Under the pieces are notes generated by a model. That model worked only from the letters and a program-made list of their open reading frames with translations. It did no database searches and had not been told where the DNA came from. The position numbers and the translations under genes were made by a program. A stretch of 64,000 nt of DNA from an uncultured Oscillospiraceae bacterium (GTDB taxonomy: Bacteria; Bacillota; Clostridia; Acetivibrionales; DTU013): contig CAZEIH010000017.1 of assembly GCA_964512095.1 (NCBI GenBank), forward strand, positions 267-64,266, written 5' to 3'. Positions 5,227 to 59,444 of this stretch are shown in pieces (positions within the stretch are counted from its first letter, which is position 1; every line of letters begins with the position of its first letter).

Positions 5227-5292
5227 TCCCTCGAACCCCAGGGACCACCAAGCTAGCCTCTTCCACCAGGCTTTGCTTGTCCCATACTTCGC

Positions 5293-7071: not shown

Positions 7072-7156
7072 AAGCTAACACCTATCCCTATCTGCGAGTA
7101 TTCGCTAACTGTTTCATAATTTATGCGCCTGCCTAATATAAGCCTGTAGTCCGTAG

Positions 7157-29148: not shown

Positions 29149-30351
29149 TCATTTCCTTTTAATATCCAACCATTTAAAAAGTCTAACATACTCATCAACG
29201 CCTTTGGCATCCGGCATTTTGTCAGAGAATCCCATATCCTTCCTTGCCACATTATTTACTATTCTATGTAGCCAGGCAACAGGAAGCAGTAATTTATATT
29301 TGCGAGCATAGGAGTAGGCATCTGACAGACTCTCTGAAGGGGGGAAAATGTAGGTCAATCTCGAAACCCTTCCACCACCACTATATGGGCTTATATACCT
29401 TGCCAATGCGCGGTATGATGCAGACCTGCTATCCTTGCCTCCAAATACGCCGGAGCTAAAAATAGCACTAATCATATTGTCTATATACTCTCTATCCTTA
29501 GAATATTTCCCGACTATATCCTGAGGGATATCTAAATTAAAAAACTCATAGCAGATAAACAGCACAACTTCAACAAACTTTCCAATTCCATAACCATAAG
29601 CTCTATCAAACAAATACTTCCAATCGATGGTTTGAGTAACCCTTCTAACAAGAAGATTCAGGTCTGACAGCTGTCTTAAGCCAAAGCCTCCCATACCGAA
29701 ATGGTTTGTCATATGAACACAGCAATATATTATCTGGTTGATATCAGAAGGAACAAGGAATGATATATTATCGGCTTCAAAGAGATAATTCGACTCCCAA
29801 ATCTCATTGTTAAAATCAGCAGCGGCTCTTCTTTTTTCTTCAGTAAACAATGAGAAATGCAGTTCAATAGGGATATGTCGGATATGGGCAAGGTTAATAT
29901 GCTTTGCATCCTCTTTTGTTTTAACATATCCATACCCCTCAATTACCTTCATTGCTTCTTCAAGGTATTGTTGTTTAGTCAGCAAATCGATATCACTCAT
30001 TGACCGCATATCCGGTTCCGGATACAAGTACTTGTAATGCAAGCCCTTCAGCGCCATAACTGGAACGTTAGCCTTTTCAAAATCAACAAACATATTTTTG
30101 AAAACATCAAATCTCTGACTATACTGCAGCACCTGAATAATCGTGTTTTTTCCCCAGCTATCAAACAATTCCGGATTAACATCGCATCCACATTCATGTG
30201 CTTTTGAGAAAATAATGGAGTGAATCTGGTGGGCAAATGCATCCTCACATAATTGCTGCCACTCCTGTGCTCCAAGATCAATGGACACAGAATCACAGCA
30301 GCCTGTTGCTGCCGATAGCAGCCTGACCAGTGCAATATCAACCTTATTCAT
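29149..30351 (-). CDS. uncharacterised nucleotidyltransferase family protein (NTP_transf_5-like)
   Basis: 400 aa. The MSDIDLL motif and overall pattern resemble the PF14907 family. Recognised by eye only. Confidence 0.6.
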   Translation of the reverse strand: MNKVDIALVRLLSAATGCCDSVSIDLGAQEWQQLCEDAFAHQIHSIIFSKAHECGCDVNPELFDSWGKNTIIQVLQYSQRFDVFKNMFVDFEKANVPVMALKGLHYKYLYPEPDMRSMSDIDLLTKQQYLEEAMKVIEGYGYVKTKEDAKHINLAHIRHIPIELHFSLFTEEKRRAAADFNNEIWESNYLFEADNISFLVPSDINQIIYCCVHMTNHFGMGGFGLRQLSDLNLLVRRVTQTIDWKYLFDRAYGYGIGKFVEVVLFICYEFFNLDIPQDIVGKYSKDREYIDNMISAIFSSGVFGGKDSRSASYRALARYISPYSGGGRVSRLTYIFPPSESLSDAYSYARKYKLLLPVAWLHRIVNNVARKDMGFSDKMPDAKGVDEYVRLFKWLDIKRK

Positions 30352-46923: not shown

Positions 46924-47818
46924 TCCTGGTTTTTACTACATCTGTATCTGCATCTGCATCCTTTTTAACTAGTGCATAAACTGTTCTAAGCATAGTCTTG
47001 ATATTACCCATAAATGAAAACCTCTCAATATCACCTAAATTGAACTTCATCTTATCTGGCAACACCAGATTCATATAAACCACATCAACATCAGCAGCAG
47101 CAGTAGCAGTAGCAGTAGCAGCAGCAGTAGCAGTAGCAGTAGCAGTAGCAGTAGTAGTAGCAGTAGCAGCAGCACCAGTAGCATCGCCAGTAGCATCACC
47201 AGTAGCACCAGTAGCACCAGTATCATCAACCTCATAAACCCCATCAAGATTATCAGCTACTTTGAGTATACTTTCCTCATCCTTGTACTCGATACTTGCA
47301 TTTGAGGTAACACCGGCTGGCAGCAGCAGAGTTGCCAGCATTTCATCGGTATACAGCTCTACATATTTGACAACCTCCGGGCGAGTACCTACAAAGCTCA
47401 TATCGCCTTTAATTATATTCAAAAGCTGGGGTATTTCGTCGAGACGATATTTTCTTAAGCTCCTGCCGATTCGGGTAATTCTCACATCGTCACTCCTTGT
47501 GACTTGTGAACCAATTTTCTCAGCATTTTTAACCATTGTTCTAAATTTGAATATAGTAAAATGTCTTCCATATTGGGTTACTCTTGTCTGCTTGAATAGT
47601 ACAGAGCCTTTAGAGTCCAACCTTATGATTATACTTAGTATTAAAAACACCGGCGACAGAAGTATCAGGAAAATAGCAGAGGTGACTATGTCAAATAACC
47701 TCTTAACGAATAAGCTTAGCTTTTTCTTTTCCAATATGTCATAGTACCTTCTGACCTCAGTATTCTTCATGAATTCAGGCAACTTATCCCATTGTCGTAG
47801 CATCACCTTTATCTGCAC
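46904..47818 (-). CDS. PglC/WbaP-C-type monotopic phosphoglycosyl (priming) transferase
   Basis: Bac_transf motifs: a re-entrant helix, FKFRTM and DEIPQLLNIIKGDMSFVGTRP. Carries a ~45-aa (Gly/Asp/Ala/Thr)n insertion. Confidence 0.85.
   Translation of the reverse strand: MQIKVMLRQWDKLPEFMKNTEVRRYYDILEKKKLSLFVKRLFDIVTSAIFLILLSPVFLILSIIIRLDSKGSVLFKQTRVTQYGRHFTIFKFRTMVKNAEKIGSQVTRSDDVRITRIGRSLRKYRLDEIPQLLNIIKGDMSFVGTRPEVVKYVELYTDEMLATLLLPAGVTSNASIEYKDEESILKVADNLDGVYEVDDTGATGATGDATGDATGAAATATTTATATATATAAATATATAAADVDVVYMNLVLPDKMKFNLGDIERFSFMGNIKTMLRTVYALVKKDADADTDVVKTRSVSSEN
47092..47222 (-). repeat. GCT/ACT tri/hexanucleotide coding repeat
   Basis: Minus strand (GCTACT)n, (GCT)n and GGTGMTACT units encode TGATGATGDATGDATGAAATATTTATATATATAAATATATAAA. 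Confidence 0.9.
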
Positions 47819-47841: not shown

Positions 47842-49053
47842 TCAAAATGCCAAAATTCTTTTAAATGAGCTGCAAACATATTCCACATCATCATCACTGA
47901 GTAATGTATGCAGTGGGAGTGTAATCTCGTTTGCATACTGCTTATAAGCATTCGGATAATCCTTTATATCAAAACCCAGGTTTTTGTAAGCAGTCATCAT
48001 CGGAAGCGGCTTATAATGCACATTACACACGATGCCAGCCTGGGCCATTCTAGTAATAATGCTATTTCTTCTCTGCTCCCCTATCCATGGTAGGTTTGCT
48101 AGGTAAAGATGTCCCGAAGAAGTAAAATTTTCTCCCCTATGCTGCAAACTCACAACCCCTTTGGATAACAATGCTTCATCGTACATCTCTATAACAGCAT
48201 GTCTTCTTTGCATGAGCCCTTCGTATCTACTTAGTTGCATCAAGCCAAATCCCGCCAATATATCAGTCATATTGCACTTGTATGCCGGATATATAATGTC
48301 ATACTCCCATGCTCCTATTTGTGTCTTCGCCAGCGCATCCTTGGACTGCCCGTGAAGGCTCATGAGCATATACTGTTTGTATAACCATTCATCGTCAATC
48401 CCTATATCGCCACGCCAAAGTGCCGCTCCTCCCTCAGCTGTAGTCATGTTTTTTACAGCGTGAAAGGAAAAGCATGTGAAATCTGCAGCCAGACCACAAT
48501 TCACATTGTTTTGTACAGCACCAAAGGCATGTGCGGCATCAGCCATTACAACCACCCTGTCCAATTGCTTCTGAAGGCTATTGTTAGCTCTGAAAATACA
48601 TTTTTTACTCTCTACTGCATCATATATCGCATCATAATCACACATCTTGCCTGCTATATCAACAGGTATAATGACCTTTGTTTTCTCATTTATAGCATCA
48701 GCCAGTCTACTGTAATCCATTTCGAATGAACCCGGTGCAAGATCCACAAAGACTATTTTTGCGCCCACATGATCTATCACTGATGCTGATGCCGAATATG
48801 TATAGGGTGTTGTTATGACCTCATCCCCAGGGCCTATTCCGAGTATGCGTAGGGTGAGCTCCATTGCTGCCGTTGCTGAATTTAGGCAGACTGCTTTATT
48901 TGATCCTACAAACTCCGAAATCCTTTGCTCTAACAATTTAGTCCTAGGCCCGGTTGTAATCCAGCCTGATTTCATAGCCTTTATTACTCCCTCTATTTCT
49001 GCATCTGTTATGTCAGGTGGCGAAAAAGATATGCTCCTTATTTTACTATTCAT
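47842..49053 (-). CDS. DegT/DnrJ/EryC1-family sugar aminotransferase (PglE-like)
   Basis: 403 aa. PLP-lysine region SFHAVKNMTTAEGG and an N-terminal SFSPPDITDAEI. Confidence 0.85.
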   Translation of the reverse strand: MNSKIRSISFSPPDITDAEIEGVIKAMKSGWITTGPRTKLLEQRISEFVGSNKAVCLNSATAAMELTLRILGIGPGDEVITTPYTYSASASVIDHVGAKIVFVDLAPGSFEMDYSRLADAINEKTKVIIPVDIAGKMCDYDAIYDAVESKKCIFRANNSLQKQLDRVVVMADAAHAFGAVQNNVNCGLAADFTCFSFHAVKNMTTAEGGAALWRGDIGIDDEWLYKQYMLMSLHGQSKDALAKTQIGAWEYDIIYPAYKCNMTDILAGFGLMQLSRYEGLMQRRHAVIEMYDEALLSKGVVSLQHRGENFTSSGHLYLANLPWIGEQRRNSIITRMAQAGIVCNVHYKPLPMMTAYKNLGFDIKDYPNAYKQYANEITLPLHTLLSDDDVEYVCSSFKRILAF

Positions 49054-49272: not shown

Positions 49273-49526
49273 AAGTCATCGAAATTTGTATGCATAAGTT
49301 CATCTTGATTGGTTAATTATTGCCTCTTATGTCATTTTAATGATTATGGGGTTATTTGTCAATATGCTATTTGCATAACAATTGGTTCAAAATTATTATG
49401 AAGTTTAGTATTTAAGCAGTGACATAGATAAATTTTTTTATGAATGTGCAATAATAGGTATTCCTTTTGTTGGCAATATGTATTACAATATGTATGTGTA
49501 CAAATTTTGTAAACAGGAGTGGTAAA

Positions 49527-52010
49527 ATGTTTATTTATAAGAAATTATCCTTTATTTTAATTGCTGCATTGATTTTTTCTATATTAATCCCATTTCCTGC
49601 AACAGCAAAAGAGGCTGTAGATGTAACTGAAAAAATTCAGCTTTTAGGGAAGCCTGCTCAATCTCAGCCCTATGCTAGAAATATTTGGGACATGCAGGTC
49701 TTCAAGGGGAAGCTATACGTCTGCTGTGGCAACAGCAGCAATAATGCTCCCGCATCTAACGCAGGGCCAATTGATGTTCTTAGCTATGATTCCGTTAAAG
49801 GCATTAGTAAGGTTTATACAGTCAACGAAGAGCAGGTTGATATCTTCAGAGTCATCAACGAAGTTCTATACATTCCCGGACATGATTCAAAGGATTCCTG
49901 GGATTTTGGCAATTACTACATCTTAAGCGATAGCTGGAAGAAGGTTAGGACAATTCCACAGGGCGTCCATGTCTATGATATGGCTGGCTACAATGGAAAG
50001 CTATACGCTGCTACCGGCACCAATGGCTACAGTGAGGTGGTAGTCTCTAGCGATAACGGCCTTACCTGGAATAAAGCAGCCCCTGAGGATGGAACCATCT
50101 TTCACACCACAGGCTACAGAGCCTATACCATGTTTGAATTTAAAGATGTTTTGTATGCATCCAGCAAGTTTATGGGAGTATCAAGCAATTGCAATAACAT
50201 GCTAAAAATAACCAAAGAAGGTATTACTTCTATTAATGTAGAAGGTCTAAAAATGATGCCGGGGTTGCCATCGTCTACCATGTATGCCAGCTGTAAACTT
50301 ATCAGACCTGTTGAGTTCAAGGATAACTTGTTGTACATAGGCGCTGAGATACACAATGATCATCAATATATACCACTCGCTTTGTATGCTTCCAGCAATA
50401 TTGGAGATGCCAGGATAATAACCCTTCCTGAAAGCACTGCTCTGCCCTATGATATTATTACACGCGATTCCCTTATATACGTTCTCGCCAGTGTTAAAGT
50501 CTCTGACAGCTCTTTTAAAAACTTAGTGTATAAGAGCACTGATTTAAATACCTGGGAGCAGGTGCTTAGCTTTAACAGTAGTGCCTTTGCCCGATCCTTT
50601 GAAGAAATAAATGGTGATTTCTTCTTTGGACTTGGCTGTGACACGGCTTATATGCCTGAATCATCGGGTAATATATTGAAGGTAAGTAAGTCCGCATATG
50701 CACCTACTCAAGTAGTGCAAGCTGTGACCAAGCAGGAGCAGGAGCCTGCGCTTAAAACTCAGTCAGAAGCCAACTCTGGGACGAAGACGGAGGCTAAATC
50801 GGAAACCAAGACTAAATCTGAAACCACATCGGCAGCTAAGTCGGAAACCAAGGCAGAGACCAAATCTGAGACCACATCAGTAGCTAAGTCGGAGGCGAAG
50901 TCCGAGACTAAATCAGAAACCATGGCAGAGACCAAATCAGAAACCAAGGCCGAGACTAAATCTGAGGCCACATCGGTAGCTAAGTCAGAGGCGAAGTCCG
51001 ATACTAAATCAGAAACCATGGCTGAGACCAAATCAGAAACCAAGGCCGAGACTAAATCTGAGGCCACATCTGTTGCTAAGTCAGAGGCGAAGTCCGATAC
51101 TAAATCAGAGACCACATTGGTAGCTAAGTCGGAGGCGAAGTCCGATACTAAATCTATTGAAGAAACCGCGACGATTGGCACCACAGAAAACAATACGCAA
51201 GCTAATAACCCTACCTCATCAAAATCCTCGACTGAGGTCAGTAGAAGCAGCAGGCAGTCATTTGCTAACTCTTCTTCAATAAATGTAAGCAGCAAGCTTA
51301 TGTCAACCGGCATTCAGCTAACTAAGCCCATTACCGCCAATACATCAGAACTCCAGATATTCGGTAGTACCTTGTATCTTTTACAAGAAAACACCTCTGA
51401 GCCAAGTATCATTGGTATAGATCTTGCCAAAGGCGCATTGATTAGTAATGCTGCAGCTGATTCCACCTATAAAAAGAACCAATTAGCGAATAATAAATCT
51501 CATACAACCAAAGAAAATATGGAGTCCTTAAAATTAGCAGTTACGAACATGTTACCTGTTTTGTCGGTCTATAACTCTATAGACATATTCAAAGCTATAA
51601 AAACTGAAGGCTATGAAATATATATTCCAGCTAAGAAAACAATTAGAAAACGGGTCGCCTCCATCGGTTTATACGTTACATCCTTAGGAGGCTCTTCAGG
51701 AGACTCTTCAGGAGGTTCTTCACGCCGCATTAACTTCAACAGCTCTGATGCAAAGCCCTGTGACATAATTATCCGAGATTCCGATGTCTATGTGTTGGCA
51801 GTGGAGGAATACGAAGACAATACCTTCAGAAGCATTGTTTGTCAAAGTAGAGATTTAGTTAACTGGACAGAGCTATTTGTTTTTACCAATGAAGCACCTG
51901 CAGTATCATTTGAGGAACACAATGGTGATTTCTACTTCGTACTTAACTGCGATGAAAAAAATAAATCTGCGTCAAATAAACTAATGAAGGTTAGTAGAAA
52001 TGATTATTAA
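49527..52010 (+). CDS. secreted repeat protein with Asp-box (BNR-like) motifs
   Basis: AGGAG lies 7 nt before ATG 49527. Signal peptide MFIYKKLSFILIAALIFSILIPFPATA. One Asp-box SSDNGLTW, a central (KSETKAE…) repeat block, and a C-terminal ~85 aa that duplicates residues about 330-415. Confidence 0.7.
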   Translation: MFIYKKLSFILIAALIFSILIPFPATAKEAVDVTEKIQLLGKPAQSQPYARNIWDMQVFKGKLYVCCGNSSNNAPASNAGPIDVLSYDSVKGISKVYTVNEEQVDIFRVINEVLYIPGHDSKDSWDFGNYYILSDSWKKVRTIPQGVHVYDMAGYNGKLYAATGTNGYSEVVVSSDNGLTWNKAAPEDGTIFHTTGYRAYTMFEFKDVLYASSKFMGVSSNCNNMLKITKEGITSINVEGLKMMPGLPSSTMYASCKLIRPVEFKDNLLYIGAEIHNDHQYIPLALYASSNIGDARIITLPESTALPYDIITRDSLIYVLASVKVSDSSFKNLVYKSTDLNTWEQVLSFNSSAFARSFEEINGDFFFGLGCDTAYMPESSGNILKVSKSAYAPTQVVQAVTKQEQEPALKTQSEANSGTKTEAKSETKTKSETTSAAKSETKAETKSETTSVAKSEAKSETKSETMAETKSETKAETKSEATSVAKSEAKSDTKSETMAETKSETKAETKSEATSVAKSEAKSDTKSETTLVAKSEAKSDTKSIEETATIGTTENNTQANNPTSSKSSTEVSRSSRQSFANSSSINVSSKLMSTGIQLTKPITANTSELQIFGSTLYLLQENTSEPSIIGIDLAKGALISNAAADSTYKKNQLANNKSHTTKENMESLKLAVTNMLPVLSVYNSIDIFKAIKTEGYEIYIPAKKTIRKRVASIGLYVTSLGGSSGDSSGGSSRRINFNSSDAKPCDIIIRDSDVYVLAVEEYEDNTFRSIVCQSRDLVNWTELFVFTNEAPAVSFEEHNGDFYFVLNCDEKNKSASNKLMKVSRNDY
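50760..51155 (+). repeat. tandem coding repeat, 90-nt period (Lys/Ser/Glu/Thr/Ala-rich)
   Basis: The 30-aa unit SVAKSEAKS(E/D)TKSETMAETKSETKAETKSEAT is repeated nearly identically, with shorter 6-8-aa sub-repeats on both sides. Confidence 0.9.
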
Positions 52011-52465
52011 AATAAACGCCTAAGGCGGTAATACATCCTCATCACCATCTTTCTGACAGGTATAATTAGAAGCCATAATCCTACTAAACATCTTAAAAGC
52101 ATATTATTGCAATCAATAATATGCTTTCCCCTTCTTATCCTGGAAACAGTAGCAATCAACTGGTGAGATACAAGAGGCCCTTCTACCCACTGCTGCGCGT
52201 CACCTATTATATAAAAGCTACTCTCTTCCTTTTTCATTACTCTGTGCATTACATATTCGCCTGTCAATCGTTTAATTAGAACGATATCTCCCCTTTTCAC
52301 AGAATCGTAGGAATTGCTTGCAAGCTCTACACTGTCCTTACCTTCACGTAGAAATGGATACATACTCATCCCGGTTACCGTTATCCAGGCCTTTTCACCA
52401 TTATTCAGTATCTCAGCGACCAAACTAAACAGTTCTGCCGCCTTCACCTTTACAAGCTCATGCAT
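52007..52465 (-). CDS. S24/S26-type serine peptidase-like protein, C-terminal TM
   Basis: TGMSMYPFL (GxSMxP Ser box), GDIVLIKR (Lys box) and the hydrophobic tail LLRCLVGLWLLIIPV. Overlaps the upstream gene by 16 nt. Confidence 0.65.
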   Translation of the reverse strand: MHELVKVKAAELFSLVAEILNNGEKAWITVTGMSMYPFLREGKDSVELASNSYDSVKRGDIVLIKRLTGEYVMHRVMKKEESSFYIIGDAQQWVEGPLVSHQLIATVSRIRRGKHIIDCNNMLLRCLVGLWLLIIPVRKMVMRMYYRLRRLF

Positions 52466-53346
52466 TTATACACCAACTCCACAGCTTCATAGTCAGGGCG
52501 GCATTGTAGCAGATAAACGGGAACTGTTTCTACCAGCTTTTCAATGACCTTAATAGTTGCCTCCATTAATCCTCCATCAAAGTATGGGAGAAAGCACCGA
52601 GGCATCAACATTTCCAGCGCTCTGGCCATATCGAGTCTTTCAATCCTATTCTCAGATGACCGGGTCAGCATCACAACACCCTCCAATGGTACCTTCAAAT
52701 TAGCAAATATATCTGTTGAACCACTCCAGGGCGTACCACACAGCATCGGCTTGCCCTCAAGGAAACGAATAACCGGTCTATCGTCATTCAAAAGTGTAAC
52801 TCTGTCTCCGTACCTTTCCTTCCACAGCCCTGTATGTGTTGACTTGCCTGTACCTGAAGGAGCAGATACAATAACACCCTTACCGTCTATTGCAAATGAG
52901 GAGGAATGTACAGTAATGCTATCCATACTAATCATTGCGTTTCTGTATGCTATACCTGTGAGCTGAAATGTGTGGTAATCATTCCATTTGACACGTCTAT
53001 TATCACTTATGGGATAAGTCAAATCAGACTCTATGTATCTAATGGATATATTCCTCCAAAAATAATCTGCTTCAAGAATGGTGTCAAACTCCAGATTTCT
53101 TGTACTTGTCATAGCTATGAAAAAACCGTTGTCAGGAGCTTTTTTTCTATACCATCTTGATGTTTCATCAAGTATCAGATCACCATCAGGAATAACAATG
53201 TTATCCACCTTTTCCGATTTAACAATCAAATCGACAGCTGAAGCCGACGTATCCGATGCTTCCATTTTGAATATGGCTCCTCTTTCTTCAAACAGATCGT
53301 TGGATCCTATAAATTCGACAATAATACCAGCAATGTTGTAAAGCAA
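52450..53346 (-). CDS. HPr-kinase-C-terminal-domain-like P-loop protein
   Basis: VHSSSFAIDGKGVIVSAPSGTGKSTHTGLW resembles the HprK C-domain motif (H-A-S…G…G-x-S-G-x-GKS). TTG start at 53346, 9 nt after AGGAG. Confidence 0.65.
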   Translation of the reverse strand: MLYNIAGIIVEFIGSNDLFEERGAIFKMEASDTSASAVDLIVKSEKVDNIVIPDGDLILDETSRWYRKKAPDNGFFIAMTSTRNLEFDTILEADYFWRNISIRYIESDLTYPISDNRRVKWNDYHTFQLTGIAYRNAMISMDSITVHSSSFAIDGKGVIVSAPSGTGKSTHTGLWKERYGDRVTLLNDDRPVIRFLEGKPMLCGTPWSGSTDIFANLKVPLEGVVMLTRSSENRIERLDMARALEMLMPRCFLPYFDGGLMEATIKVIEKLVETVPVYLLQCRPDYEAVELVYKCMSL

Positions 53347-53427
53347 ATTTATTCACTCCTGACAATTACATAATATAATAGCTTAGAGAAATTCCCTTAT
53401 GCAGGCTGAGCCTTCCTTTTGGTTCAG

Positions 53428-53524
53428 TCAATTCGCATCGCTCAGGGAGTCAGGTGGAGACTGAACTCCGCTTGACCAAGGAAGTTAATTATTGAGTTCA
53501 GCGTCTCCTGAAGACATAGATAAA
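53428..53524 (-). repeat. full-length copy of the dispersed repeat (inverted relative to 57323 and 59445)
   Basis: TCAATTCGCATCGCTCAGGGAGTCAGGTGGAGACTGAACTCCGCTTGACC…CCTGAAGACATAGATAAA. About 85% identical to the reverse complement of 57323-57425. Confidence 0.85.
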
Positions 53525-53528
53525 GGGC

Positions 53529-53560
53529 AAAATAAAAGGGATTGTACAATTAACAACCCC
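53529..53560 (-). terminator. rho-independent terminator directly after the second precursor gene
   Basis: Minus RNA reads GGGGUUGU-UAAUUGU-ACAAUCCC-UUUUAUUUU. The G·U pair would be an A·C mismatch on the plus strand, so the orientation is minus. Confidence 0.7.
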
Positions 53561-53581
53561 CCATTAAAGACATACATAATA

Positions 53582-53710
53582 TTAGGAATTCAAACCTACC
53601 CAGGTATTATACTCTGCAGAGCAAGCCCCATCATAGTATGTACATGTACAAACTCTCTCATCTGCGCGTAGTTCTACACAGTTTATTTCGGGAGCAACAT
53701 ATTTTTTCAT
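53582..53710 (-). CDS. putative RiPP precursor peptide A2 (42 aa)
   Basis: Not in the ORF track. AGAGGTG lies 7 nt before the ATG. Sequence: MKKYVAPEINCVELRADERVCTCTYYDGACSAEYNTWVGLNS. Confidence 0.75.
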   Translation of the reverse strand: MKKYVAPEINCVELRADERVCTCTYYDGACSAEYNTWVGLNS

Positions 53711-53746
53711 TGTTTTTCACCTCTTTCCTCTTCAAGTTTGTATTTC

Positions 53747-53893
53747 TCACGAATCGCTAAGGGCTATAAGACCAACCATTGTGGGAATGTTTTGAACCTC
53801 CCATGTAGTACAACTTCCTGTGCAATTGCTGGCTATACGCTCCTCAACTCTTAGCTCTACACATGATAGTGTAGGTGTAACATATGCTTTCAT
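53747..53893 (-). CDS. putative RiPP precursor peptide A1 (48 aa)
   Basis: Not in the ORF track. AGGAGGG lies 7 nt before the ATG, 30 nt after the rSAM stop. Sequence: MKAYVTPTLSCVELRVEERIASNCTGSCTTWEVQNIPTMVGLIALSDS. Confidence 0.75.
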   Translation of the reverse strand: MKAYVTPTLSCVELRVEERIASNCTGSCTTWEVQNIPTMVGLIALSDS

Positions 53894-53923
53894 CTGGAAC
53901 CCTCCTTTCCATAATTTTTAAAA

Positions 53924-55051
53924 TCAATATTCTACATCCAGCTCCTTGCGGGCTTTTGCAGTCTCGCAAAGATATGGGGCTGGTTTAGTGAAGCTGCCTG
54001 TTTCAACCTTCAGTCTTGCAGGACAAGCCATGCATTTTGAGCGAAGGTCGCAATTATCACATTCCTTGCAGGAAGGTACATCCAGGCAGGATTTCTTTAG
54101 CAGTTCCCAAGATTTCGAAAATCCAAGACTCTTTACGTCGAACCAGGGATCTGTCAATAAGCCGCAAGGCGTCAATCTGCCATCCCAGGTCAACCAAAAG
54201 GCACCCTTCCCCGCCGTACATCTAAAGGCGGACGAAGCAGTCATATGCGGTATCTCTCCCACTAACTCATTAAGCTGGCCATCTGTCATAACATCATTAT
54301 TTACTGATAGCTCAGCCCTCTTCCTTGTTTCTTCCCGGTCCATGAGCTTTAATCTGAAGTCCTGAATCATTTTCTCATACCTTGCCAGCTCCAGAGGACC
54401 AAGCCTGCAGTTTTCAGGATCAGTGCCACAGCCCTCTCTCCTTGGCGCAACATAGTTGACTATGCCCAGTTGCCCTCCAAGACTGTCTGCTAAAGAATAT
54501 ATCTCCTCAAATTCACTACTATTTTCATCTATAACAGTGGTCTTTAGCTCTACCTTAATATTCTCAGCTAATAGCAGCTTTATTGCATTTACCGTATTGT
54601 GGAAGCCCTCCGGGTGTCCTGTGACTCTACCATAGGTCTCTGGACTTGCCCCATAAAGTGTAATGCTCACCTTTGATGGTGGCCTCTTCCCCAATCTGTG
54701 TGCCTTTTCAGCGTCTATGAGACCTCCGTTAGTATAGAGGGTAATACTCATTCCCATTTCTGAAAGAGCCTCGTATATCTCAAAGAAGTCCTTTCTCATG
54801 AATATCTCTCCACCGGTTAATGTCATAAAAATGAGCCCTGCATCTCTGGCCTGCCTTCCCAATGAAATCCACTGTGATGCTGTCAGCTCGTTTTCAAGGA
54901 ATGCTTTATCATCTGGCACACTGCATACGTAGCACATTTTGCAATGAAAGCTACATCTGGCTGTCAATTCAAAAAAACCTGATGCAGGATTCCCTACAAT
55001 AATTGACCTGTCAATTAAATTTTTGTATAATTGAGCCCATGACATACTCAT
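53924..55051 (-). CDS. radical SAM / SPASM-domain peptide-modifying enzyme
   Basis: CSFHCKMC (CxxxCxxC) near the N-terminus. The Cys-rich C-terminus is FRCTAGKGAF…TPCGLL…CLDVPSCKECDNCDLRSKCMACPA…YLCE. Overlaps the PqqD-like gene by 4 nt. Confidence 0.85.
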   Translation of the reverse strand: MSMSWAQLYKNLIDRSIIVGNPASGFFELTARCSFHCKMCYVCSVPDDKAFLENELTASQWISLGRQARDAGLIFMTLTGGEIFMRKDFFEIYEALSEMGMSITLYTNGGLIDAEKAHRLGKRPPSKVSITLYGASPETYGRVTGHPEGFHNTVNAIKLLLAENIKVELKTTVIDENSSEFEEIYSLADSLGGQLGIVNYVAPRREGCGTDPENCRLGPLELARYEKMIQDFRLKLMDREETRKRAELSVNNDVMTDGQLNELVGEIPHMTASSAFRCTAGKGAFWLTWDGRLTPCGLLTDPWFDVKSLGFSKSWELLKKSCLDVPSCKECDNCDLRSKCMACPARLKVETGSFTKPAPYLCETAKARKELDVEY

Positions 55052-55335
55052 TGTTGGTCCCCGCCATCTGCTGTTTCCAGTAGATTTTTCTGATGCAGTG
55101 TATCTAAAAACCTGATAACATCATTTTTTGCAGTTGCCTCGTCGATATCATATTCTTCAAGCAAAGCTGATACTAATTGCTGAGTGTTGGCATCACTTTC
55201 CATCAGGCGCCATAAAATCGCACCACTTTCACTTAGCGTCATTATTCCGTTGAATTCTACAACTCTTGCCCCCAATGGAACAACTACCCATTGCTTGGCA
55301 ATCTCCCGTAACATGAAACCGCTTTTGACCTTCAT
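55048..55335 (-). CDS. PqqD-family protein (RiPP recognition element)
   Basis: 95 aa. FMLREIAKQWVVVPLG…FNGIMTLSESGAILWRLM…LVSALLEEYDID…AKNDVIRFLDTL matches the PqqD-like winged-helix pattern. Confidence 0.8.
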   Translation of the reverse strand: MKVKSGFMLREIAKQWVVVPLGARVVEFNGIMTLSESGAILWRLMESDANTQQLVSALLEEYDIDEATAKNDVIRFLDTLHQKNLLETADGGDQQ

Positions 55336-55432
55336 CTACAAACCCCTTTATGATATGTTGTAATTTTATCTATTTAGTAGCCTTTTTATGTAATATTATA
55401 CAGTATCATCTTTTAAATGAATTTTCATGTCT

Positions 55433-55461
55433 ATATTATAATTATTTCATCTGTAAGTCAA
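55433..55461 (-). promoter_or_regulatory. candidate promoter for the pqqD-rSAM-precursor unit
   Basis: Minus strand reads TTGACT, a 17-nt spacer, then TAATAT (a TATAAT also occurs at 15 nt). It lies in a 222-nt AT-rich gap. Confidence 0.4.
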
Positions 55462-55557
55462 TACCAATTTTAATATTTCCAGTAATACTTTTGCTTTTAT
55501 TTTATTTTTTTACTTTTTATGTGGCATAGTCGCTTTTTTCATGGCACAATTACTTTA

Positions 55558-57255
55558 TTAGACAGTCAGTAATTTTCTATTCTCCCTTTCCGGTTCTAAA
55601 AACCCCTCCCTAAGTCTGAATACTTTACTACAGCTATTTAGGGCAGTCATTCTGTGAGTAATCATTATACAGGTTCGAGCATGGCCTATTCCCTGTATAC
55701 TTTGTAATACCTTCTCTTCCAGCTCTATATCAAGGGCTGAGGTAGCCTCGTCAAGTATTATAATCGGCGCCTTCCTAAGATAGGCCCTGGCTATTGCTAT
55801 TCTCTGGGCCTGGCCTTCAGAAAGCCCGTATGCTTTTTCTCCAATAACAGTGTTAATTCCATCTGGAAGCTTTTCGACAAATTCCAGCGCACAGGCTGCT
55901 TTTAATGCTTCCTTCATTTCACTCTCACTTGCCTCCTGCTCTCCTGTGCGCAGATTGTCAGCTATTGTTCCACTTAATAATGTATTTCCTTGAGGAACAT
56001 ACGAGAACCAGCTTCTTGTGGCACATGTAATTTCACTTTTTTCGTCCCTTTCATTGAAACAGTAGATACTTCCAGCATCAGGCTTTAAAAGAGCAAGCAT
56101 GAGGCGTATTATCGTTGTTTTACCTTCGCCGGAGCTTCCTATTATGGCTACTATTTCACCTGGCAACGCCTCCATTGAAATATTATTCAGTACAATTTCA
56201 TCATCTTCATAGCTAAAGCTGACATTTTCAAATTTAATCCCTACCGAGCCAGGAGTCTCCAGTAGCTCATCAGTTACCTCTGTATTCAGCCTCTCAAGCT
56301 CTATCAACCTGCCTGCAGATGCCAGTGCTGCAATAATCTGAGGCAGCATCCTTGAAAGACCCATAAAGGGAGCCTGAACCTGATTGACAAGCTGCAGGAA
56401 GGCGGTCATTGTACCGTAAGTCGCTGTCCCCCTGGCTACCTTCACTATACCCCAGCCAAAGGCTGACCCATAGCCAAGCCAGTATCCAATAGACATTATG
56501 GTGCTAGCCATTACTCCGGCTTTGCTTCGCTTTGTCACCAGCTCTAGCTTTTCCTTTTGCAGCTCTCCAATTTTCTTCTTGCTATTTTCTTCAAGATTAA
56601 AGGTCTTAATAACCAGAAGGTTCTGCAGGTATTCCTGCATTTGAGACCGGTAAGTACTTTCGGTTTCCTGTATCTGTATGTGCATTTTGCCAAGTCTTCT
56701 GCCATAAAATCTGCTCACAAGTATCGTAAATGGCGCAAGTACAAATGCAAGTATCGCTAAGCTCTTGTCATAAACCATAAGTGTCACAAATGCCGCCGTT
56801 AGCTGTACTCCTAAGGAAATGATCTGTGGCAGTACGCTAATTGAACCGTTTGTAACAGAATTAATGTCGCTTGTCAAACGGGTCAGAAGATCACCACTGT
56901 GATATCTTGAGACCTGGGCCCACTCAATGTTTATCAGCTTTGCAAAAATACCCTGCCGCATATCATTGGAGTACCTTTCATGAACTCTTGCTGTATACAC
57001 TGTAAGAAATGCACGGGAAATTTGCATAAATAAAATCACACTCACAAATAAAGCGATGTTAGGTCCAGCACTTTTTAATCCATCATAAATAGCACTGTCT
57101 ACGAGATTTTTTGACGCTACCGCCATTAAAACTGAGGCAATAGCAGCCAAAGATTCCACAGCTATTATGAGAATAAGGGCTCCCAGGTATGGCCTTATGC
57201 TTGCAGCTAACCATCTGATATTGGATAAACTCTTTATTACTTTCTTAATGTTCAT
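55558..57255 (-). CDS. ABC exporter, fused permease/ATPase (no C39 peptidase domain)
   Basis: 565 aa with 6 TM helices, Walker A GSSGEGKTT, signature LSEGQAQR and Walker B IIILDEATS. Confidence 0.9.
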   Translation of the reverse strand: MNIKKVIKSLSNIRWLAASIRPYLGALILIIAVESLAAIASVLMAVASKNLVDSAIYDGLKSAGPNIALFVSVILFMQISRAFLTVYTARVHERYSNDMRQGIFAKLINIEWAQVSRYHSGDLLTRLTSDINSVTNGSISVLPQIISLGVQLTAAFVTLMVYDKSLAILAFVLAPFTILVSRFYGRRLGKMHIQIQETESTYRSQMQEYLQNLLVIKTFNLEENSKKKIGELQKEKLELVTKRSKAGVMASTIMSIGYWLGYGSAFGWGIVKVARGTATYGTMTAFLQLVNQVQAPFMGLSRMLPQIIAALASAGRLIELERLNTEVTDELLETPGSVGIKFENVSFSYEDDEIVLNNISMEALPGEIVAIIGSSGEGKTTIIRLMLALLKPDAGSIYCFNERDEKSEITCATRSWFSYVPQGNTLLSGTIADNLRTGEQEASESEMKEALKAACALEFVEKLPDGINTVIGEKAYGLSEGQAQRIAIARAYLRKAPIIILDEATSALDIELEEKVLQSIQGIGHARTCIMITHRMTALNSCSKVFRLREGFLEPERENRKLLTV

Positions 57256-57322: not shown

Positions 57323-57425
57323 ATTTTATCTATGTCTTCAGAAGACGTTGACCTCTGAATTAATTAACTTCCTTGGTCAGATGGAGTTCAGTCTCCACCT
57401 GACTCCCTGAGCGAAGTGAATTGAT
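57323..57425 (+). repeat. full-length copy of the dispersed ~103-nt repeat
   Basis: 97/103 identical to 59445-59547. Contains the GTCTTCAGAAGAC palindrome, TTAATTAA and the hairpin GGTCAGATGGAG-TTCAGT-CTCCACCTGAC. Confidence 0.9.
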
Positions 57426-59360
57426 ATGCCTTCTTGTTTTTATGAAACCTTTGTTCTCTTGTATTGCTTTGTATGATCTAGTTGCCTGTTCGCTTTCATA
57501 TAAATCCATATCCTGTATCTCAGGTATAAAATAATCCTTCGTGTATCTGTATGTCGGTACAAGCTTAGCCATGGTTTCTCTGAGCATTTCATCGTTCTCC
57601 ATGGAATTTTCCAACGCCTTAATACACATGATAACTTCTTGGAAGCTTATATCATGCTGTTTGCCGATAAATATCTTTTCATGGGCAGTTTTCTCCAGTC
57701 CCTCCTCTGCCATCAGTAGCTCCTCGTAGAGCTTCTCTCCAGGCCGCAAGCCTGAGTATTCTATCTTTATATCCACATACGGTTCAAAGCCTGACAGGCT
57801 AATAAGATCCCGGGCTAAATCTGCAATTTTAACAGGCTCGCCCATGTCAAGCACAAATACCTCACCGCCCTCCCCCAGCGCTCCTGCCTGAATCACCAGC
57901 TGAGCAGCCTCAGGTATGGTCATGAAGTAACGTATAATATCAGGGTGAGTGACTGTGACAGGGCCCCCCTGAATAATTTGCTTCTTGAATAGCGGTATGA
58001 CACTACCATTACTACCTAGAACATTACCAAAGCGGACAGCTGCGAATTTGGTTTCACTCATTCTATTCATGGATTGGACAATAATCTCAGCCAGACGCTT
58101 TGATGCGCCCATTATATTAGTAGGGTTTACTGCCTTGTCGGTAGACACAAGTATGAATTTCTTTGTTCCAAAGTCTATCGCCCGCCTACAGGTATTTAGC
58201 GTACCGAATACATTGTTCTTTATAGCTTCCGAAGGATTTCCCTCCATCAATGGCACATGCTTGTGGGCTGCCGCATGGAATACAACTCCCGGCCTATAGC
58301 GCTCAAATATCTCCCTGAGCCTTCCACGGTCCCTACAGGAGCCTATGAGGACTTCCAAGTCAAGCTTATCCTTGTACGTATAGACCAGCTCATTTTGTAA
58401 ATCGTAAGCGTTGTTTTCGTAAATATCAAATATAACCAGCTTTTTTGGCTCAAATTTAGCAATCTGCCTGCAAAGCTCTGAGCCTATGGATCCCCCACCG
58501 CCTGTCACTAACACTACTTCATCCTTGAGGTATCCGGATATTTCGTCCATATTGAGAGTAATCTCGTCACGTCCCAAAAGATCTTCTATATCTACATCCC
58601 TAAGCTGATTGGCTGTCAATTCCCCATCAATTATATCCATCATGTTGGGAAGTGTTTTTAGCTTGCATTTGGTATCCTTGCTTATCCTTAACAAATCAGC
58701 AACATCCCGCTTTGAAGCCGATGGTATGGCAACTACTATCTCATCTATTTTGTACTGCTTTGCTATCTCCCTGATTCTCTCTCTTCCTGATACCACCGGA
58801 ATATTATTAATACAGGTACCATGCTTTGTTATATCATCATCTACCACTACAACTGGTACCAGGTTCATATCGTTATGGTTTTTGAACTCCTTTATTAACA
58901 TAGAGCCTGCACTTCCAGCACCAACCATCATAACCCTGCTGGGCTTACGGTTGTTCCTTTGCAAATAAAGCCTTGCTCTGCGAAGATATCTGCATCCAAT
59001 CCTAACAGAACCAATAAGCATACATAAAAATATCCATGAAATTATGTGTATGGATATTGGGTATGTCCTTCCTGTCAACTGGCTTATTAGTAATCCAAGC
59101 CCTGTAGCTGTGATGGTTCCAACTGTAATCTGCATCATTTCCTCTATGCTTGCATATTCCCAAAGGCTTCTATAGAGTCCGAAAAAATAGAATACAACAA
59201 TTTGAACAATGCTAATCATCAGTGCATTTCTTAAGAAGTTATCAAAGTATTTCTGCGGTATGGCTATATCAAATTTTATGAGCAATGCAAGGCATAGTGA
59301 AATATTTACTATTAAAGCATCTGCTATGACAAGTACAATTTTTCTTAATTTAACTGACAT
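57360..59360 (-). CDS. PglF/CapD-type membrane-anchored UDP-sugar 4,6-dehydratase
   Basis: Four N-terminal TM helices, VLVTGGGGSIGSEL and FGNVLGSNGSVIP (Polysacc_synt_2). ATG 59360 follows GGGAGG. The last 22 codons lie inside the repeat. Confidence 0.85.
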   Translation of the reverse strand: MSVKLRKIVLVIADALIVNISLCLALLIKFDIAIPQKYFDNFLRNALMISIVQIVVFYFFGLYRSLWEYASIEEMMQITVGTITATGLGLLISQLTGRTYPISIHIISWIFLCMLIGSVRIGCRYLRRARLYLQRNNRKPSRVMMVGAGSAGSMLIKEFKNHNDMNLVPVVVVDDDITKHGTCINNIPVVSGRERIREIAKQYKIDEIVVAIPSASKRDVADLLRISKDTKCKLKTLPNMMDIIDGELTANQLRDVDIEDLLGRDEITLNMDEISGYLKDEVVLVTGGGGSIGSELCRQIAKFEPKKLVIFDIYENNAYDLQNELVYTYKDKLDLEVLIGSCRDRGRLREIFERYRPGVVFHAAAHKHVPLMEGNPSEAIKNNVFGTLNTCRRAIDFGTKKFILVSTDKAVNPTNIMGASKRLAEIIVQSMNRMSETKFAAVRFGNVLGSNGSVIPLFKKQIIQGGPVTVTHPDIIRYFMTIPEAAQLVIQAGALGEGGEVFVLDMGEPVKIADLARDLISLSGFEPYVDIKIEYSGLRPGEKLYEELLMAEEGLEKTAHEKIFIGKQHDISFQEVIMCIKALENSMENDEMLRETMAKLVPTYRYTKDYFIPEIQDMDLYESEQATRSYKAIQENKGFIKTRRHINSLRSGSQVETELHLTKEVN

Positions 59361-59444
59361 CTCATTTTCCTCCCGTGTTTTGCGCAGCAATCTCTACACT
59401 GGCCTATTCATGTACGTATAACACTAATTTATATATTCAAAATC

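Follow-up and report, generated by a model that had tools for sequence, protein, structure and literature searches.

A kinase-linked radical SAM peptide cluster that remains uncharacterized is conserved in Clostridia

Analysis of a 64,000-nucleotide stretch of DNA from an uncultured Oscillospiraceae bacterium (hereafter, the window) shows that it carries a widely conserved but uncharacterized RiPP-type gene set, which is predicted to make two small modified peptides using a radical SAM (rSAM) enzyme together with a kinase-like enzyme of the kind known from lasso peptides, and which recurrently sits inside polysaccharide-synthesis loci. The observation in the earlier note, which described this set of genes from the sequence alone, is confirmed: every feature that it listed is present, and all coordinates and overlaps check. 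Its reading of the locus, a sactipeptide/ranthipeptide-type pathway with added kinase-like and peptidase genes that might represent an undescribed subclass, is only partly supported, as detailed below. The thioether, phospho-Ser and possible phosphoglycosylation chemistry discussed here is inferred.

Gene content of the cassette

The cassette and the features associated with it, all on the minus strand, are the following.

55558..57255 (-), ABC half-transporter (565 aa), putative exporter of the mature peptides
55336..55557 (-), 222-nt AT-rich intergenic region with promoter-like hexamers (TTGACT-17-TAATAT at 55461-55433)
55048..55335 (-), stand-alone PqqD-family RiPP recognition element (RRE; 95 aa), the stop of which overlaps the rSAM start by 4 nt
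53924..55051 (-), radical SAM/SPASM peptide-modifying enzyme (375 aa)
53747..53893 (-), precursor peptide A (48 aa), leader MKAYVTPTLSCVELRVEERIA followed by core SNCTGSCTTWEVQNIPTMVGLIALSDS, junction approximate
53582..53710 (-), precursor peptide B (42 aa), leader MKKYVAPEINCVELRADERV followed by core CTCTYYDGACSAEYNTWVGLNS, junction approximate
53536..53562 (-), terminator-like stem-loop plus U-tract after precursor B, probably a partial terminator
52450..53346 (-), ScmC-family P-loop enzyme of predicted PEPCK/HPr-kinase fold (298 aa), putative peptide Ser kinase
52007..52465 (-), SipW/ER-type S26 (S24/S26) serine peptidase (152 aa), putative leader peptidase, overlapping the kinase-like gene by 16 nt
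29149..30351 (-), NTP_transf_5 nucleotidyltransferase in the same long minus-strand polysaccharide operon, a possible accessory enzyme acting on the phosphate, with the link to the cluster being an inference

The arrangement is far more than chance: the same gene order, PqqD-rSAM-peptide(s)-kinase-like-peptidase-ABC, recurs in about 25 genomes of several families of Clostridia. At least 360 homologs of the rSAM enzyme were found; among the 81 loci examined, the kinase-like and PqqD genes each accompany the rSAM homolog in 69, the ABC transporter in 35 (usually directly after the S26 peptidase) and the S26 peptidase in 34. The kinase-like and peptidase genes are integral, conserved members of the cluster. 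The non-coding elements are less distinctive. Promoter-like sites in the region are not above the shuffled expectation (20 found against 15.7 +/- 4.1); the hexamers in the 222-nt gap are a consensus match only, and the gap has no Rfam match; the terminator stem-loop is modest (-12.2 kcal/mol, z -1.4), and the spacer is not conserved in relatives.

The ABC half-transporter consists of ABC_membrane (residues 27-297) and ABC_tran (356-506) domains, without a C39 peptidase domain; its best NCBIfam hits are MsbA-type and bacteriocin exporters, all below cut-off. The PqqD-family protein matches PF05402 (E 5.7e-18, 65.4 bits against a cut-off of 23.4), and its best NCBIfam hit is lasso_PqqD_Bac, the lasso B1 model, albeit below cut-off (42.5 bits against 80). 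The peptidase matches the Pfam S24 model (24.0 bits against a cut-off of 23.3), whereas the best NCBIfam hit, archaeal/ER-type signal peptidase I (TIGR02228, E 7e-10), is below cut-off; the Ser/His/Asp motifs G32-x-S34-M-x-P37, H74-R75 and G88-D89 are invariant in 36 homologs, and the protein has no N-terminal anchor but a C-terminal hydrophobic helix at about residues 119-141.

The precursor family

The two short ORFs, which the earlier note had picked out as Cys-containing, are real genes. Each has a GGAGG/AGAGGTG ribosome-binding site 7-8 nt upstream, precursor A is called as a gene in public records, and both match the leader profile of the family (E 2e-10 for A and 2e-9 for B). Next to homologs of the rSAM enzyme, 92 precursors with the shared leader, all annotated only as hypothetical, were found in 58 of the 81 loci. 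The family has a lasso-like leader, M-K-K-Y-x-K-P-x-[L/I]...E-E-R-h-A, and a C...G-x-C core, although some family precursors have no Cys at all (loci L002 and L008; L numbers are our locus labels). Orthologs of A have the same C-T-G-S-C core and a C-terminal Ser, and B-type orthologs end in ...GLNS, ...NLNS or ...GANS; both window peptides and all their closest relatives end in Ser, as does every A and B peptide of the window's own sub-clade. A C-terminal Ser also occurs in 31 of 35 precursors of the distant clade (p about 8e-31) but is absent from most Ruminiclostridium-type precursors, although their kinase-like active site is intact; the phospho-acceptor is therefore not uniform, or the function is different. 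G-S at the leader/core junction is present in 41 of 51 precursors that lack a C-terminal Ser, against 4 of 40 that have one, a complementary pattern that is, however, confounded by phylogeny.

The radical SAM enzyme

The rSAM enzyme (PF04055, E 3.5e-19) has C33-x3-C37-x2-C40 and a 7-8-Cys SPASM-type C-terminus, C278-x12-G-x4-C296 followed by C328/C331/C334/C340/C343/C362; these cysteines are conserved in 25-26 of 26 homologs. The nearest solved sequence is that of the thioether-forming enzyme SkfB (E 1e-25), followed by PqqE and SuiB. No curated NCBIfam model (SCM, AlbA, SkfB, StsB, PapB or lasso families) is passed, and every maturase model tested stays far below its cut-off. The top NCBIfam hits are heme enzymes (AhbD and NirJ2), but at 94-97 bits against cut-offs of 500. 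Searches of the literature found no description of the cluster. The conserved precursors, the discrete RRE, the SPASM rSAM enzyme and SkfB as its nearest solved relative support the reading of the locus as a genuine RiPP-type cluster, whereas sactionine or ranthionine chemistry is inferred from sequence alone.

The kinase-like protein

The protein that the earlier note called HPr-kinase-like, with the P-loop SAPSGTGKSTH, belongs to the Pfam family ScmC (PF27840, precomputed assignment), and UniRef names two family homologs, from Ruminiclostridium sufflavum and Desulfosporosinus hippei, "SynChlorMet cassette protein ScmC." The trio of HPrK-like protein, PqqD and rSAM/SPASM enzyme is accordingly not unheard of; a related cassette has already been catalogued bioinformatically, although it is uncharacterized. 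The AF2 model is confident (pLDDT 93.9), and Foldseek matches it to ATP-PEPCK (E 7e-7) and HPrK/P (2e-5 to 1e-4). In contrast, sequence similarity to HPrK is marginal, with PF07475 matching 5 of 44 members at E >= 0.03, and there is no PDB sequence hit.

The protein keeps the His...GxGKS...(N/D)xD catalytic constellation of lasso-peptide kinases. The published lasso-kinase motif is H148-G163-G166-G168-K169-S170-D186-D187, and in that system the RRE stimulates the kinase and the leader is required (PMC10368454). In the window protein, H147, G165, G167, K168, S169, N187 and D189 are invariant, with the same H-to-K spacing of 21 residues, and H...GK[ST]T...NxD is kept in all 73 homologs in the loci; however, the first Gly of the lasso-kinase motif is Ala here, and the acidic pair lies 2-3 residues further along and reads N-G-D in the distant clade. 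Lasso kinases phosphorylate the C-terminal Ser of the linear precursor (PMC8498205), the residue with which both window peptides end.

Two aspects were not seen in the earlier note. One is that the ScmC-like/PqqD/S26/ABC/precursor module, with the same YxKPxL leader and a Cys-rich core, also occurs without any rSAM enzyme, on the Butyrivibrio fibrisolvens plasmid pNP243 and as second modules in loci L047 and L084, with the H...GKST...D motif intact. Hence the kinase-like enzyme is probably not an add-on to a sactipeptide pathway, and the rSAM enzyme may be the variable part; the leader (YxxPx[L/I]), the best PqqD match and the C-terminal Ser follow a lasso-like logic.

Association with polysaccharide loci

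The other aspect is that the cassette is not free-standing but is repeatedly embedded in Wzy-type polysaccharide loci, in many lineages. In the window, it lies inside a roughly 35-kb same-strand operon headed by a NusG paralog and splits its CapD/DegT/Bac_transf trio. Among the 81 loci, 37 carry EPS markers or NTP_transf_5 within 8 kb, including about 24 of 28 in the close clade, against an expectation of a few percent that is our own estimate rather than a measured background for random clostridial loci; many loci of the distant clade show no EPS gene within 8 kb. The arrangements differ, which argues for independent associations: CpsB-S26-ABC-PqqD-rSAM-precursor-precursor-kinase-Wzz-CpsD (L023); Wzz-CpsD-precursor... 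(L020); CpsB-S26-CpsD (L029, L035, L037); Wzy-Wzz-NTP5-[cassette] (L088); GT4-NTP5-[cassette]-CpsB-Bac_transf (L002-L014, L089); and NusG-CapD-[cassette]-DegT-Bac_transf (window, L025, L090). Homologs of the NTP_transf_5 nucleotidyltransferase (PF14907, E 7e-48 for the window protein) lie within 8 kb of the cassette in 26 of 81 loci, often directly adjacent, although in the window it is 22 kb away. In lasso systems, a nucleotidyltransferase glycosylates the kinase-installed phosphate, giving a phosphoglycosylated C-terminal Ser (PMC8498205).

Alternative interpretations

A possible, though less favored, view that overlaps with the pathway proposed below and differs from it in the biological role is that the cassette is functionally part of the capsule/EPS pathway rather than a stand-alone bacteriocin cluster; the modified peptide would be phosphoglycosylated, or linked to the glycan, by the nucleotidyltransferase and glycosyltransferases of the operon, or else would act as a signal or regulator of EPS assembly. 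The recurrent and variously arranged associations and the lasso precedent speak for this view, but EPS loci are known hot-spots for gene insertion, and co-location does not prove a shared product. It appears unlikely that the ScmC-like protein, as the class-defining enzyme, does something other than end-point Ser phosphorylation, such as phosphorylation followed by elimination to dehydroalanine and Cys addition (a lanthionine-like route) or ATP-dependent activation of a carboxylate for cyclization, with the rSAM enzyme being an optional tailoring enzyme. The modules without an rSAM enzyme, the very large size of the ScmC-like family (2,631 clusters at 50% identity with E <= 1e-30) and conservation of the active site where no C-terminal Ser exists speak for this possibility; however, no lyase or cyclase partner is evident, the only experimentally characterized RiPP-associated relatives found in the literature are plain Ser/Thr-O-kinases, and the near-universal C-terminal Ser in the distant clade fits simple phosphorylation.

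Least likely, the cluster makes an ordinary two-peptide, thuricin-CD-like sactibiotic and the kinase-like gene is inactive or irrelevant, or the rSAM enzyme serves cofactor or heme-type chemistry and the short ORFs are fortuitous. The C-x3-C spacing near the core N-terminus and the consistently paired A/B precursors do resemble hairpin sactipeptides, and AhbD and NirJ2 are the top NCBIfam hits; against this, the kinase-like gene is translationally coupled to the peptidase gene and is conserved with invariant catalytic residues, the heme-enzyme scores are far below cut-off, the short ORFs have ribosome-binding sites and a leader conserved across 58 loci, and the AlbA, SkfB, StsB and PapB models are all failed.

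A proposed pathway

The interpretation that we favor, with moderate confidence, is that the window carries a two-precursor RiPP cassette of a large, uncharacterized family. Precursors A and B would be translated with a leader of about 21 residues that carries the lasso-type Y-x-x-P-x-[L/I] motif, and the PqqD-family RRE would bind that leader and present the peptide to the tailoring enzymes. The rSAM/SPASM enzyme would cross-link the conserved core cysteines (C-x(1-5)-G-x-C), most likely through a thioether, either of the sactionine type or a ranthionine to the conserved acidic residue 2-4 positions after the second Cys. The ScmC-family enzyme would use ATP to phosphorylate a Ser, most likely the C-terminal Ser that is invariant in this sub-clade or, in relatives without a C-terminal Ser, the G-S at the leader/core junction. 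The cytoplasm-facing, tail-anchored SipW-type S26 peptidase would remove the leader near the conserved h-A-x junction, at a site that cannot be fixed from sequence, and the ABC half-transporter would export the products. Of these elements, the leader and its conservation, together with the modeled fold and the catalytic motif of the kinase-like protein, are established by the present analysis; leader binding, cross-linking, the kinase activity and its site, cleavage and export are all inferred, the role of the RRE from family knowledge. Because the cassette sits inside a polysaccharide operon that also encodes an NTP_transf_5 nucleotidyltransferase, the phospho-Ser may be further glycosylated, for which phosphoglycosylated lasso peptides provide the precedent.

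Gene organization of the cassette

All the genes described in the earlier note are present on the minus strand at the coordinates that it gave, with the 4-nt and 16-nt overlaps and the 222-nt AT-rich gap as described, and thus, its observation holds. The cassette consists of the following genes:

55558-57255 (-), ABC half-transporter, the putative exporter
55048-55335 (-), stand-alone PqqD-family protein, the putative RiPP recognition element (RRE)
53924-55051 (-), radical SAM (rSAM)/SPASM enzyme
53747-53893 (-), short ORF of 48 aa, precursor peptide A
53582-53710 (-), short ORF of 42 aa, precursor peptide B
52450-53346 (-), 298-aa P-loop protein of the ScmC family, kinase-like
52007-52465 (-), 152-aa S24/S26-type serine peptidase

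Profile searches identified ABC_membrane and ABC_tran domains without a C39 domain in the transporter, PqqD (65 bits), Radical_SAM (70 bits), and a borderline match of the peptidase to Peptidase_S24 (24.0 bits against a cut-off of 23.3). The rSAM enzyme contains the C33-x3-C37-x2-C40 motif and a SPASM-type auxiliary-cluster cysteine set (Cx12Gx4C...CxxCxxCx5CxxC...C), conserved in 25-26 of 26 homologs. Both short ORFs are preceded by good ribosome-binding sites. The stem-loop downstream of the second ORF is a plausible but weak terminator (-12.2 kcal/mol, z -1.4), whereas the promoter-like hexamers are consensus matches only. A search of Rfam over 49-61 kb returned no hit.

The short ORFs belong to a conserved family of precursor peptides

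A scan of one genome per species with an alignment of 26 rSAM homologs returned 80 loci. Iterated profile searches of all ORFs in these loci showed that the rSAM homolog is accompanied by the kinase-like gene in 69 of 81 loci, by PqqD in 69 of 81, by the S26 peptidase in 34 of 81, and by the ABC exporter in 35 of 81. In the closer clade, where the rSAM enzymes are at least 41% identical and which includes Ruminiclostridium sufflavum, R. cellobioparum, Sporobacter, Peptococcaceae and Syntrophomonadaceae, the gene order PqqD-rSAM-peptide(s)-kinase-like-peptidase-ABC matches that of the cassette analyzed here, except that the ABC gene in the window lies upstream.

A leader profile recovered 92 short ORFs in 58 loci. 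These share the leader M-K-K-Y-[VI]-K-P-x-h-x-x-h-x-L-R-x-E-E-R-h-A, followed by a core with C-x(1-5)-G-x-C. Within the window, only the two short ORFs match this profile (E-values 2e-10 and 2e-9), and neither a third precursor nor a second rSAM enzyme was found. The A-type (...N-C-T-G-S-C-T...) and B-type (...V-C-T-C...G-A-C...) peptides co-occur as a pair in the window and in its closest relatives. All database homologs of the peptides are annotated as hypothetical and carry no Pfam domain, and there is no NCBIfam model for them. Both window precursors additionally carry a Cys at residue 11, inside the leader (L-S-C-V-E-L at 53861-53863 and I-N-C-V-E-L at 53678-53680). This Cys is shared with the precursor pair of locus L025 (L numbers denote the loci compared here) and with several relatives of the window's branch (the A-type peptides of L082, of L011, L014 and L028, and of L013, as well as P0262 and P0265, members of the window's sub-clade), but is lacking in L084, in the B-type peptide of L082 and in the rest of the family sampled.

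The Ruminiclostridium-type loci (L002-L014 and L028; for example, L005, positions 4011-7631) are larger and include several additional genes upstream of PqqD, namely, a second, unrelated rSAM enzyme (best hit PTO1314-type), a GT4 glycosyltransferase, an NTP_transf_5 nucleotidyltransferase and a third class of precursors. The latter have the same leader (...EEGIA[CH]FGS...), a Gly/His-rich core and an aromatic C-terminus (...FWFFCNW, ...GWGWFFPW), and some of them contain no Cys.

The kinase-like protein has a predicted PEPCK/HPr kinase fold

The 298-aa protein produced no hit in the Pfam profile search and only weak, P-loop-level matches to the NCBIfam models ScmC and HprK_rel_A. However, the precomputed annotation of the protein database assigns it to PF27840, named 'ScmC', and two homologs, from Ruminiclostridium sufflavum and Desulfosporosinus hippei, are named 'SynChlorMet cassette protein ScmC' in UniRef. 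An AlphaFold2 model built on 44 homologs is confident (pLDDT 93.9, pTM 0.90), and a Foldseek search against the PDB places it with ATP-dependent PEP carboxykinases (E-values down to 7e-7) and HPr kinase/phosphorylases (E-values 2e-5 to 1e-4), that is, with the PEPCK/HPrK P-loop fold. At the sequence level, similarity to Pfam Hpr_kinase_C is marginal, essentially undetectable, and PDB sequence searches with the protein or its profile gave only generic P-loop matches.

The published catalytic constellation of lasso-peptide kinases is H148-G163-G166-G168-K169-S170-D186-D187 in BsfK (PMC10368454). In the window protein, H147, A162, G165, G167, K168, S169, N187 and D189 are invariant and D188 is mostly conserved; the His-to-Lys spacing is identical to that in BsfK, but the first Gly is replaced by Ala162, and the acidic pair lies in N187-D188-D189, shifted by 2-3 residues. 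All 73 full-length homologs in the loci retain H...GK[ST]T...N-x-D. A profile search of 1.84 billion representatives detected 2,631 clusters at 50% identity with E <= 1e-30, and 12,356 with E <= 1e-3, indicating that this is a large family.

Lasso-like features of the leader and the distribution of Ser residues

The leader motif Y-x-x-P-x-[L/I], which is conserved in lasso leaders, is present in both window precursors (YVTPTL and YVAPEI) and conserved across the family. The best NCBIfam match of the PqqD protein is the lasso B1 model, lasso_PqqD_Bac, albeit at 42.5 bits against a cut-off of 80. The HPrK-like kinases of lasso systems act on the linear precursor, phosphorylating the C-terminal Ser or, in the case of BsfK, Ser3 of the core; they require the leader and are strongly stimulated by the RRE.

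Both window peptides end in Ser (...LSDS and ...GLNS), as does every A and B peptide of the window's sub-clade (L025, L082, L084, P0262 and P0265), and 31 of the 35 precursors of the distant clade (binomial p about 8e-31). A universal C-terminal Ser rule is nevertheless rejected because the Ruminiclostridium-type precursors lack this residue. The precursors without a C-terminal Ser almost always contain G-S at the leader/core junction (41 of 51, against 4 of 40 of those with a C-terminal Ser). Therefore, the two positions are complementary, mirroring the two site classes of lasso kinases, although the pattern is confounded by phylogeny and should be considered suggestive only.

The peptidase and the radical SAM enzyme

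The best NCBIfam match of the peptidase is the archaeal/ER-type signal peptidase I model TIGR02228, at 39 bits against a cut-off of 51.85; a PDB sequence search gave no match. In an alignment of 36 homologs, G32-x-S34-M-x-P37, H74-R75 and G88-D89 are invariant; these are the boxes of ER/archaeal (SipW-type, family S26B) signal peptidases, which employ a Ser/His mechanism. Unlike the members of that family, the protein lacks an N-terminal membrane anchor and contains only a C-terminal hydrophobic helix, at about residues 119-141. This suggests, by inference, a tail-anchored enzyme with a cytoplasm-facing active site, suited to the removal of leader peptides before export rather than to the processing of Sec signal peptides. 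A unique signal-peptidase-style cleavage site (small residues at -1 and -3) near the conserved h-A-x junction could not be assigned consistently across the family.

Among the solved sequences, the nearest to the rSAM enzyme is the thioether-forming enzyme SkfB (E-value 1e-25), followed by PqqE and SuiB. All NCBIfam maturase models, including AlbA, SkfB, StsB, PapB, ScmE/ScmF and GeoRSP, remain far below their cut-offs, in the window and in four tested homologs. The window enzyme scores 66 bits against a cut-off of 625 for StsB, 61 against 300 for SkfB and 48 against 850 for AlbA. PapB is not among its 25 best families and scores 44-46 bits against a cut-off of 340 in two other rSAM enzymes, the distant homolog from L052 and the upstream second rSAM enzyme of L005, which is not a homolog of the window enzyme. 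The conserved C...G-x-C pair near the core N-terminus, the C-x3-C spacing in A-type peptides and the acidic residue 2-4 positions after the second Cys are compatible with either sactionine hairpins or ranthionine-type Cys-Asp/Glu links, with no preference discernible from sequence.

The module without a radical SAM enzyme and its variable placement

The module consisting of the ScmC-like protein, PqqD, S24/S26 peptidase, ABC exporter and a precursor with the same leader also occurs without an rSAM enzyme, an arrangement that was not part of the picture in the earlier note. It is found on the 243-kb Butyrivibrio fibrisolvens plasmid pNP243 (locus L086; NZ_CP146964.1, 179497-193958), where the 57-aa Cys-rich precursor is MKKAYVKPEL...CYDPCWNPCYNPC... 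and the ScmC-like protein is called 'hypothetical' by PGAP. This locus additionally encodes a nucleotidyltransferase, a GT2 enzyme, a two-component system, an unknown 356-aa protein and PssD/PssE glycosyltransferases, and its ABC transporter is split. A very similar gene set in B. fibrisolvens is listed among 'lasso' clusters in a survey of rumen lasso peptides (PMC7533575), but no lasso cyclase is present in L086. The rSAM-less module also occurs as second modules in L047 and L084, with the catalytic motif intact. Accordingly, the rSAM enzyme may be the variable component.

In the closest relatives, L082 and L084 (rSAM enzymes 64-66% identical), the same chromosomal neighborhood holds the cassette in a different slot, between the AI-2E transporter and NusG, along with a second full or partial copy after the ABC gene; in L084, this is ABC-ScmC-S24-DegT, with no PqqD, rSAM or peptides. 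The window has only the copy after the ABC gene, and the slot between AI-2E (60639-61691) and NusG is empty, which suggests duplication and loss dynamics.

Embedding in polysaccharide loci

The cassette is recurrently embedded in Wzy-type polysaccharide loci, which also goes beyond the earlier note. Almost every gene across the roughly 35-kb stretch 25218-60257 is on the minus strand and belongs to such a locus, and the cassette interrupts this same-strand operon, which carries, in order:

59733-60257 (-), NusG paralog (PF02357) heading the locus
57360-59390 (-), CapD-like Polysacc_synt_2
52007-57255 (-), the cassette
47842-49053 (-), DegT
46904-47818 (-), Bac_transf, the initiating sugar transferase
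then (-), many glycosyltransferases, including several GT4 enzymes, and UDP-glucose dehydrogenase
29149-30351 (-), NTP_transf_5 nucleotidyltransferase (PF14907, 'uncharacterised', E-value 7e-48), directly upstream of Wzz/CpsD/CpsB
then (-), Wzz, CpsD, CpsB and Wzy (Wzy_C)

An epimerase is also encoded in the locus. The NusG paralog might be a LoaP/UpxY-type operon-specific antiterminator. No Rfam leader element was found. The Bac_transf gene contains a GCA/GTA-type tandem repeat (47092-47220; period 6/12/24) encoding a Thr/Ala-rich insertion (...TGATGATGDATGDATGAAATATTTATATATATAAATATATAAA...) in the C-terminal part of the protein, which is unusual for the family, and the repeat could vary in length. 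The only plus-strand gene in the region (49467-52010) encodes an 847-aa secreted protein with an N-terminal beta-propeller-like domain, no Pfam hit, and a central Ser/Thr/Lys/Glu-rich tandem-repeat tract (period 24/48/96 nt, 50793-51155). Its second domain aligns only over its C-terminal ~170 residues, whereas both domains of the 872-aa L025 homolog align in full (55% identity). The L025 homolog occupies the same convergent position after the S26 gene; in the window, the stop codon overlaps the peptidase stop at 52007-52010.

Across the loci, 37 of 81 carry EPS markers or NTP_transf_5 within 8 kb, and 26 of 81 carry NTP_transf_5, with homologs of the window's gene lying next to the peptide cassette (raw counts, without a background frequency of EPS genes). 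The arrangements are several and different; in some, the S26 and ABC genes sit between CpsB and CpsD/Wzz. Given that, in lasso systems, a nucleotidyltransferase adds hexoses to the phosphate installed by the kinase, phosphoglycosylation is a possible fate of the peptides.

Relationships to known systems

With the phosphorylated or phosphoglycosylated lasso peptide systems (paeninodin PadeK, BsfK/BsfB1, pseudomycoidin PsmK/PsmN), the cassette shares the YxxPx[L/I] leader, the discrete PqqD-type protein, a kinase-like protein of predicted HPrK fold with most of the catalytic constellation, precursors ending in Ser, a putative ABC exporter, and an NTP_transf_5-type nucleotidyltransferase as a frequent companion. 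However, neither an Asn-synthetase-like lasso cyclase nor a transglutaminase-type B2 protease was found among the cluster ORFs or in the conserved neighborhoods, an rSAM/SPASM enzyme and an S26 peptidase taking their places; the cores contain Cys and lack the Gly1...Asp/Glu8-9 lasso ring motif; and the kinase-like protein is only remotely similar in sequence. Hence, this is not a lasso pathway.

The related, bioinformatically defined SynChlorMet (SCM) cassette of TIGRFAMs/NCBIfam (ScmC HPrK-like, ScmD PqqD, ScmE/ScmF rSAM-SPASM) likewise combines an ScmC-family P-loop protein, a PqqD protein and rSAM/SPASM enzymes. ScmC is the best NCBIfam hit of the kinase-like protein, and ScmE/ScmF are among the top hits of the rSAM enzyme. 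Nevertheless, all SCM equivalog cut-offs are failed: ScmC (TIGR04249) scores 18.3 bits for the window protein, and 34.7 and 41.4 bits for two relatives, against 125, whereas ScmE and ScmF score 77 and 75 bits for the window enzyme (72-92 bits overall) against 400. Moreover, the window encodes one rSAM enzyme rather than two, and includes identified precursors, an S26 peptidase and an ABC exporter, whereas a precursor is not known to have been described for the SCM cassette.

With sactipeptides and ranthipeptides (SkfB, AlbA, thuricin CD TrnC/D; PapB/freyrasin, SCIFF), the cassette shares an rSAM/SPASM enzyme with a full auxiliary-cluster cysteine set, adjacent precursors with 2-3 core Cys residues, and an RRE through which recognition is inferred to occur. 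The A and B precursors are paired, as in two-peptide sactibiotics, and the acidic residues 2-4 positions after the second Cys resemble the CX3D/E motifs of ranthipeptides. The differences are that the RRE is discrete rather than fused, no curated maturase model is passed, a conserved kinase-like enzyme and a putative S26 leader peptidase are integral components, and the leader is lasso-type. We also considered Clostridium cellulolyticum Ccel_0328, described as one rSAM enzyme with two precursors, as a potential member of this family, but it is a 486-aa fused-RRE TrnC-like enzyme and is unrelated. Literature searches on HPr kinases with rSAM enzymes or RiPPs, SynChlorMet, ScmC (PF27840, TIGR04249), kinases with PqqD and thioethers, and PqqD with polysaccharides, limited to open-access papers so that absence is not proof, found no description of this cassette.

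Interpretation and implications

The earlier note interpreted the cluster as a candidate RiPP cluster of unassigned class, with the signature of sactipeptide/ranthipeptide-type pathways and possibly an additional tailoring step, and our results support this in part. That these seven genes comprise a functional RiPP-type cassette appears highly likely. The cassette, which is widespread and uncharacterized, works like a hybrid that combines an rSAM/SPASM RiPP pathway with the leader, RRE, kinase and nucleotidyltransferase tailoring logic of Firmicute lasso peptides, and adds a signal-peptidase-type leader protease. What the sequences establish is the gene set, its conservation, the precursor family and the motifs, and the fold of the ScmC-like protein is a confident prediction; in contrast, leader binding by the RRE, thioether formation, ATP-dependent phosphorylation stimulated by the RRE, leader cleavage, export and a possible glycosylation are all inferred. 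Accordingly, we consider the complete mechanistic model only somewhat more likely than not.

A more radical possibility, compatible with the evidence but in our view unlikely, is that the ScmC-family HPrK-fold enzymes, together with a PqqD RRE, a cytoplasm-facing S26 peptidase and an ABC exporter, define a large, so far unrecognized RiPP class, with lasso-type leaders, in which the peptides are phosphorylated and then (phospho)glycosylated or otherwise coupled to the glycan pathway, because the cassette is an integral part of Wzy-type capsule/EPS loci in Clostridia and other anaerobes. In this view, the rSAM cross-linking would be just one optional elaboration, and the product would be a peptide-glycan conjugate or an EPS-linked signal rather than a classical bacteriocin.

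If the mechanistic model holds, this family joins two RiPP toolkits that so far have been seen separately, rSAM/SPASM cross-linking and lasso-type leader/RRE/HPrK-like kinase tailoring. The kinase-like family, with thousands of ScmC-like clusters in public data and no known products, is represented in gut (Oscillospiraceae, Ruminococcus), rumen (the Butyrivibrio plasmid) and environmental anaerobes, and the definition of the precursors makes the system directly testable by co-expression and MS. The recurrent embedding in capsule/EPS loci beside a nucleotidyltransferase raises the possibility of phosphoglycosylated peptides, or of a peptide link to polysaccharide assembly, either of which would be new biology for Gram-positive anaerobes.
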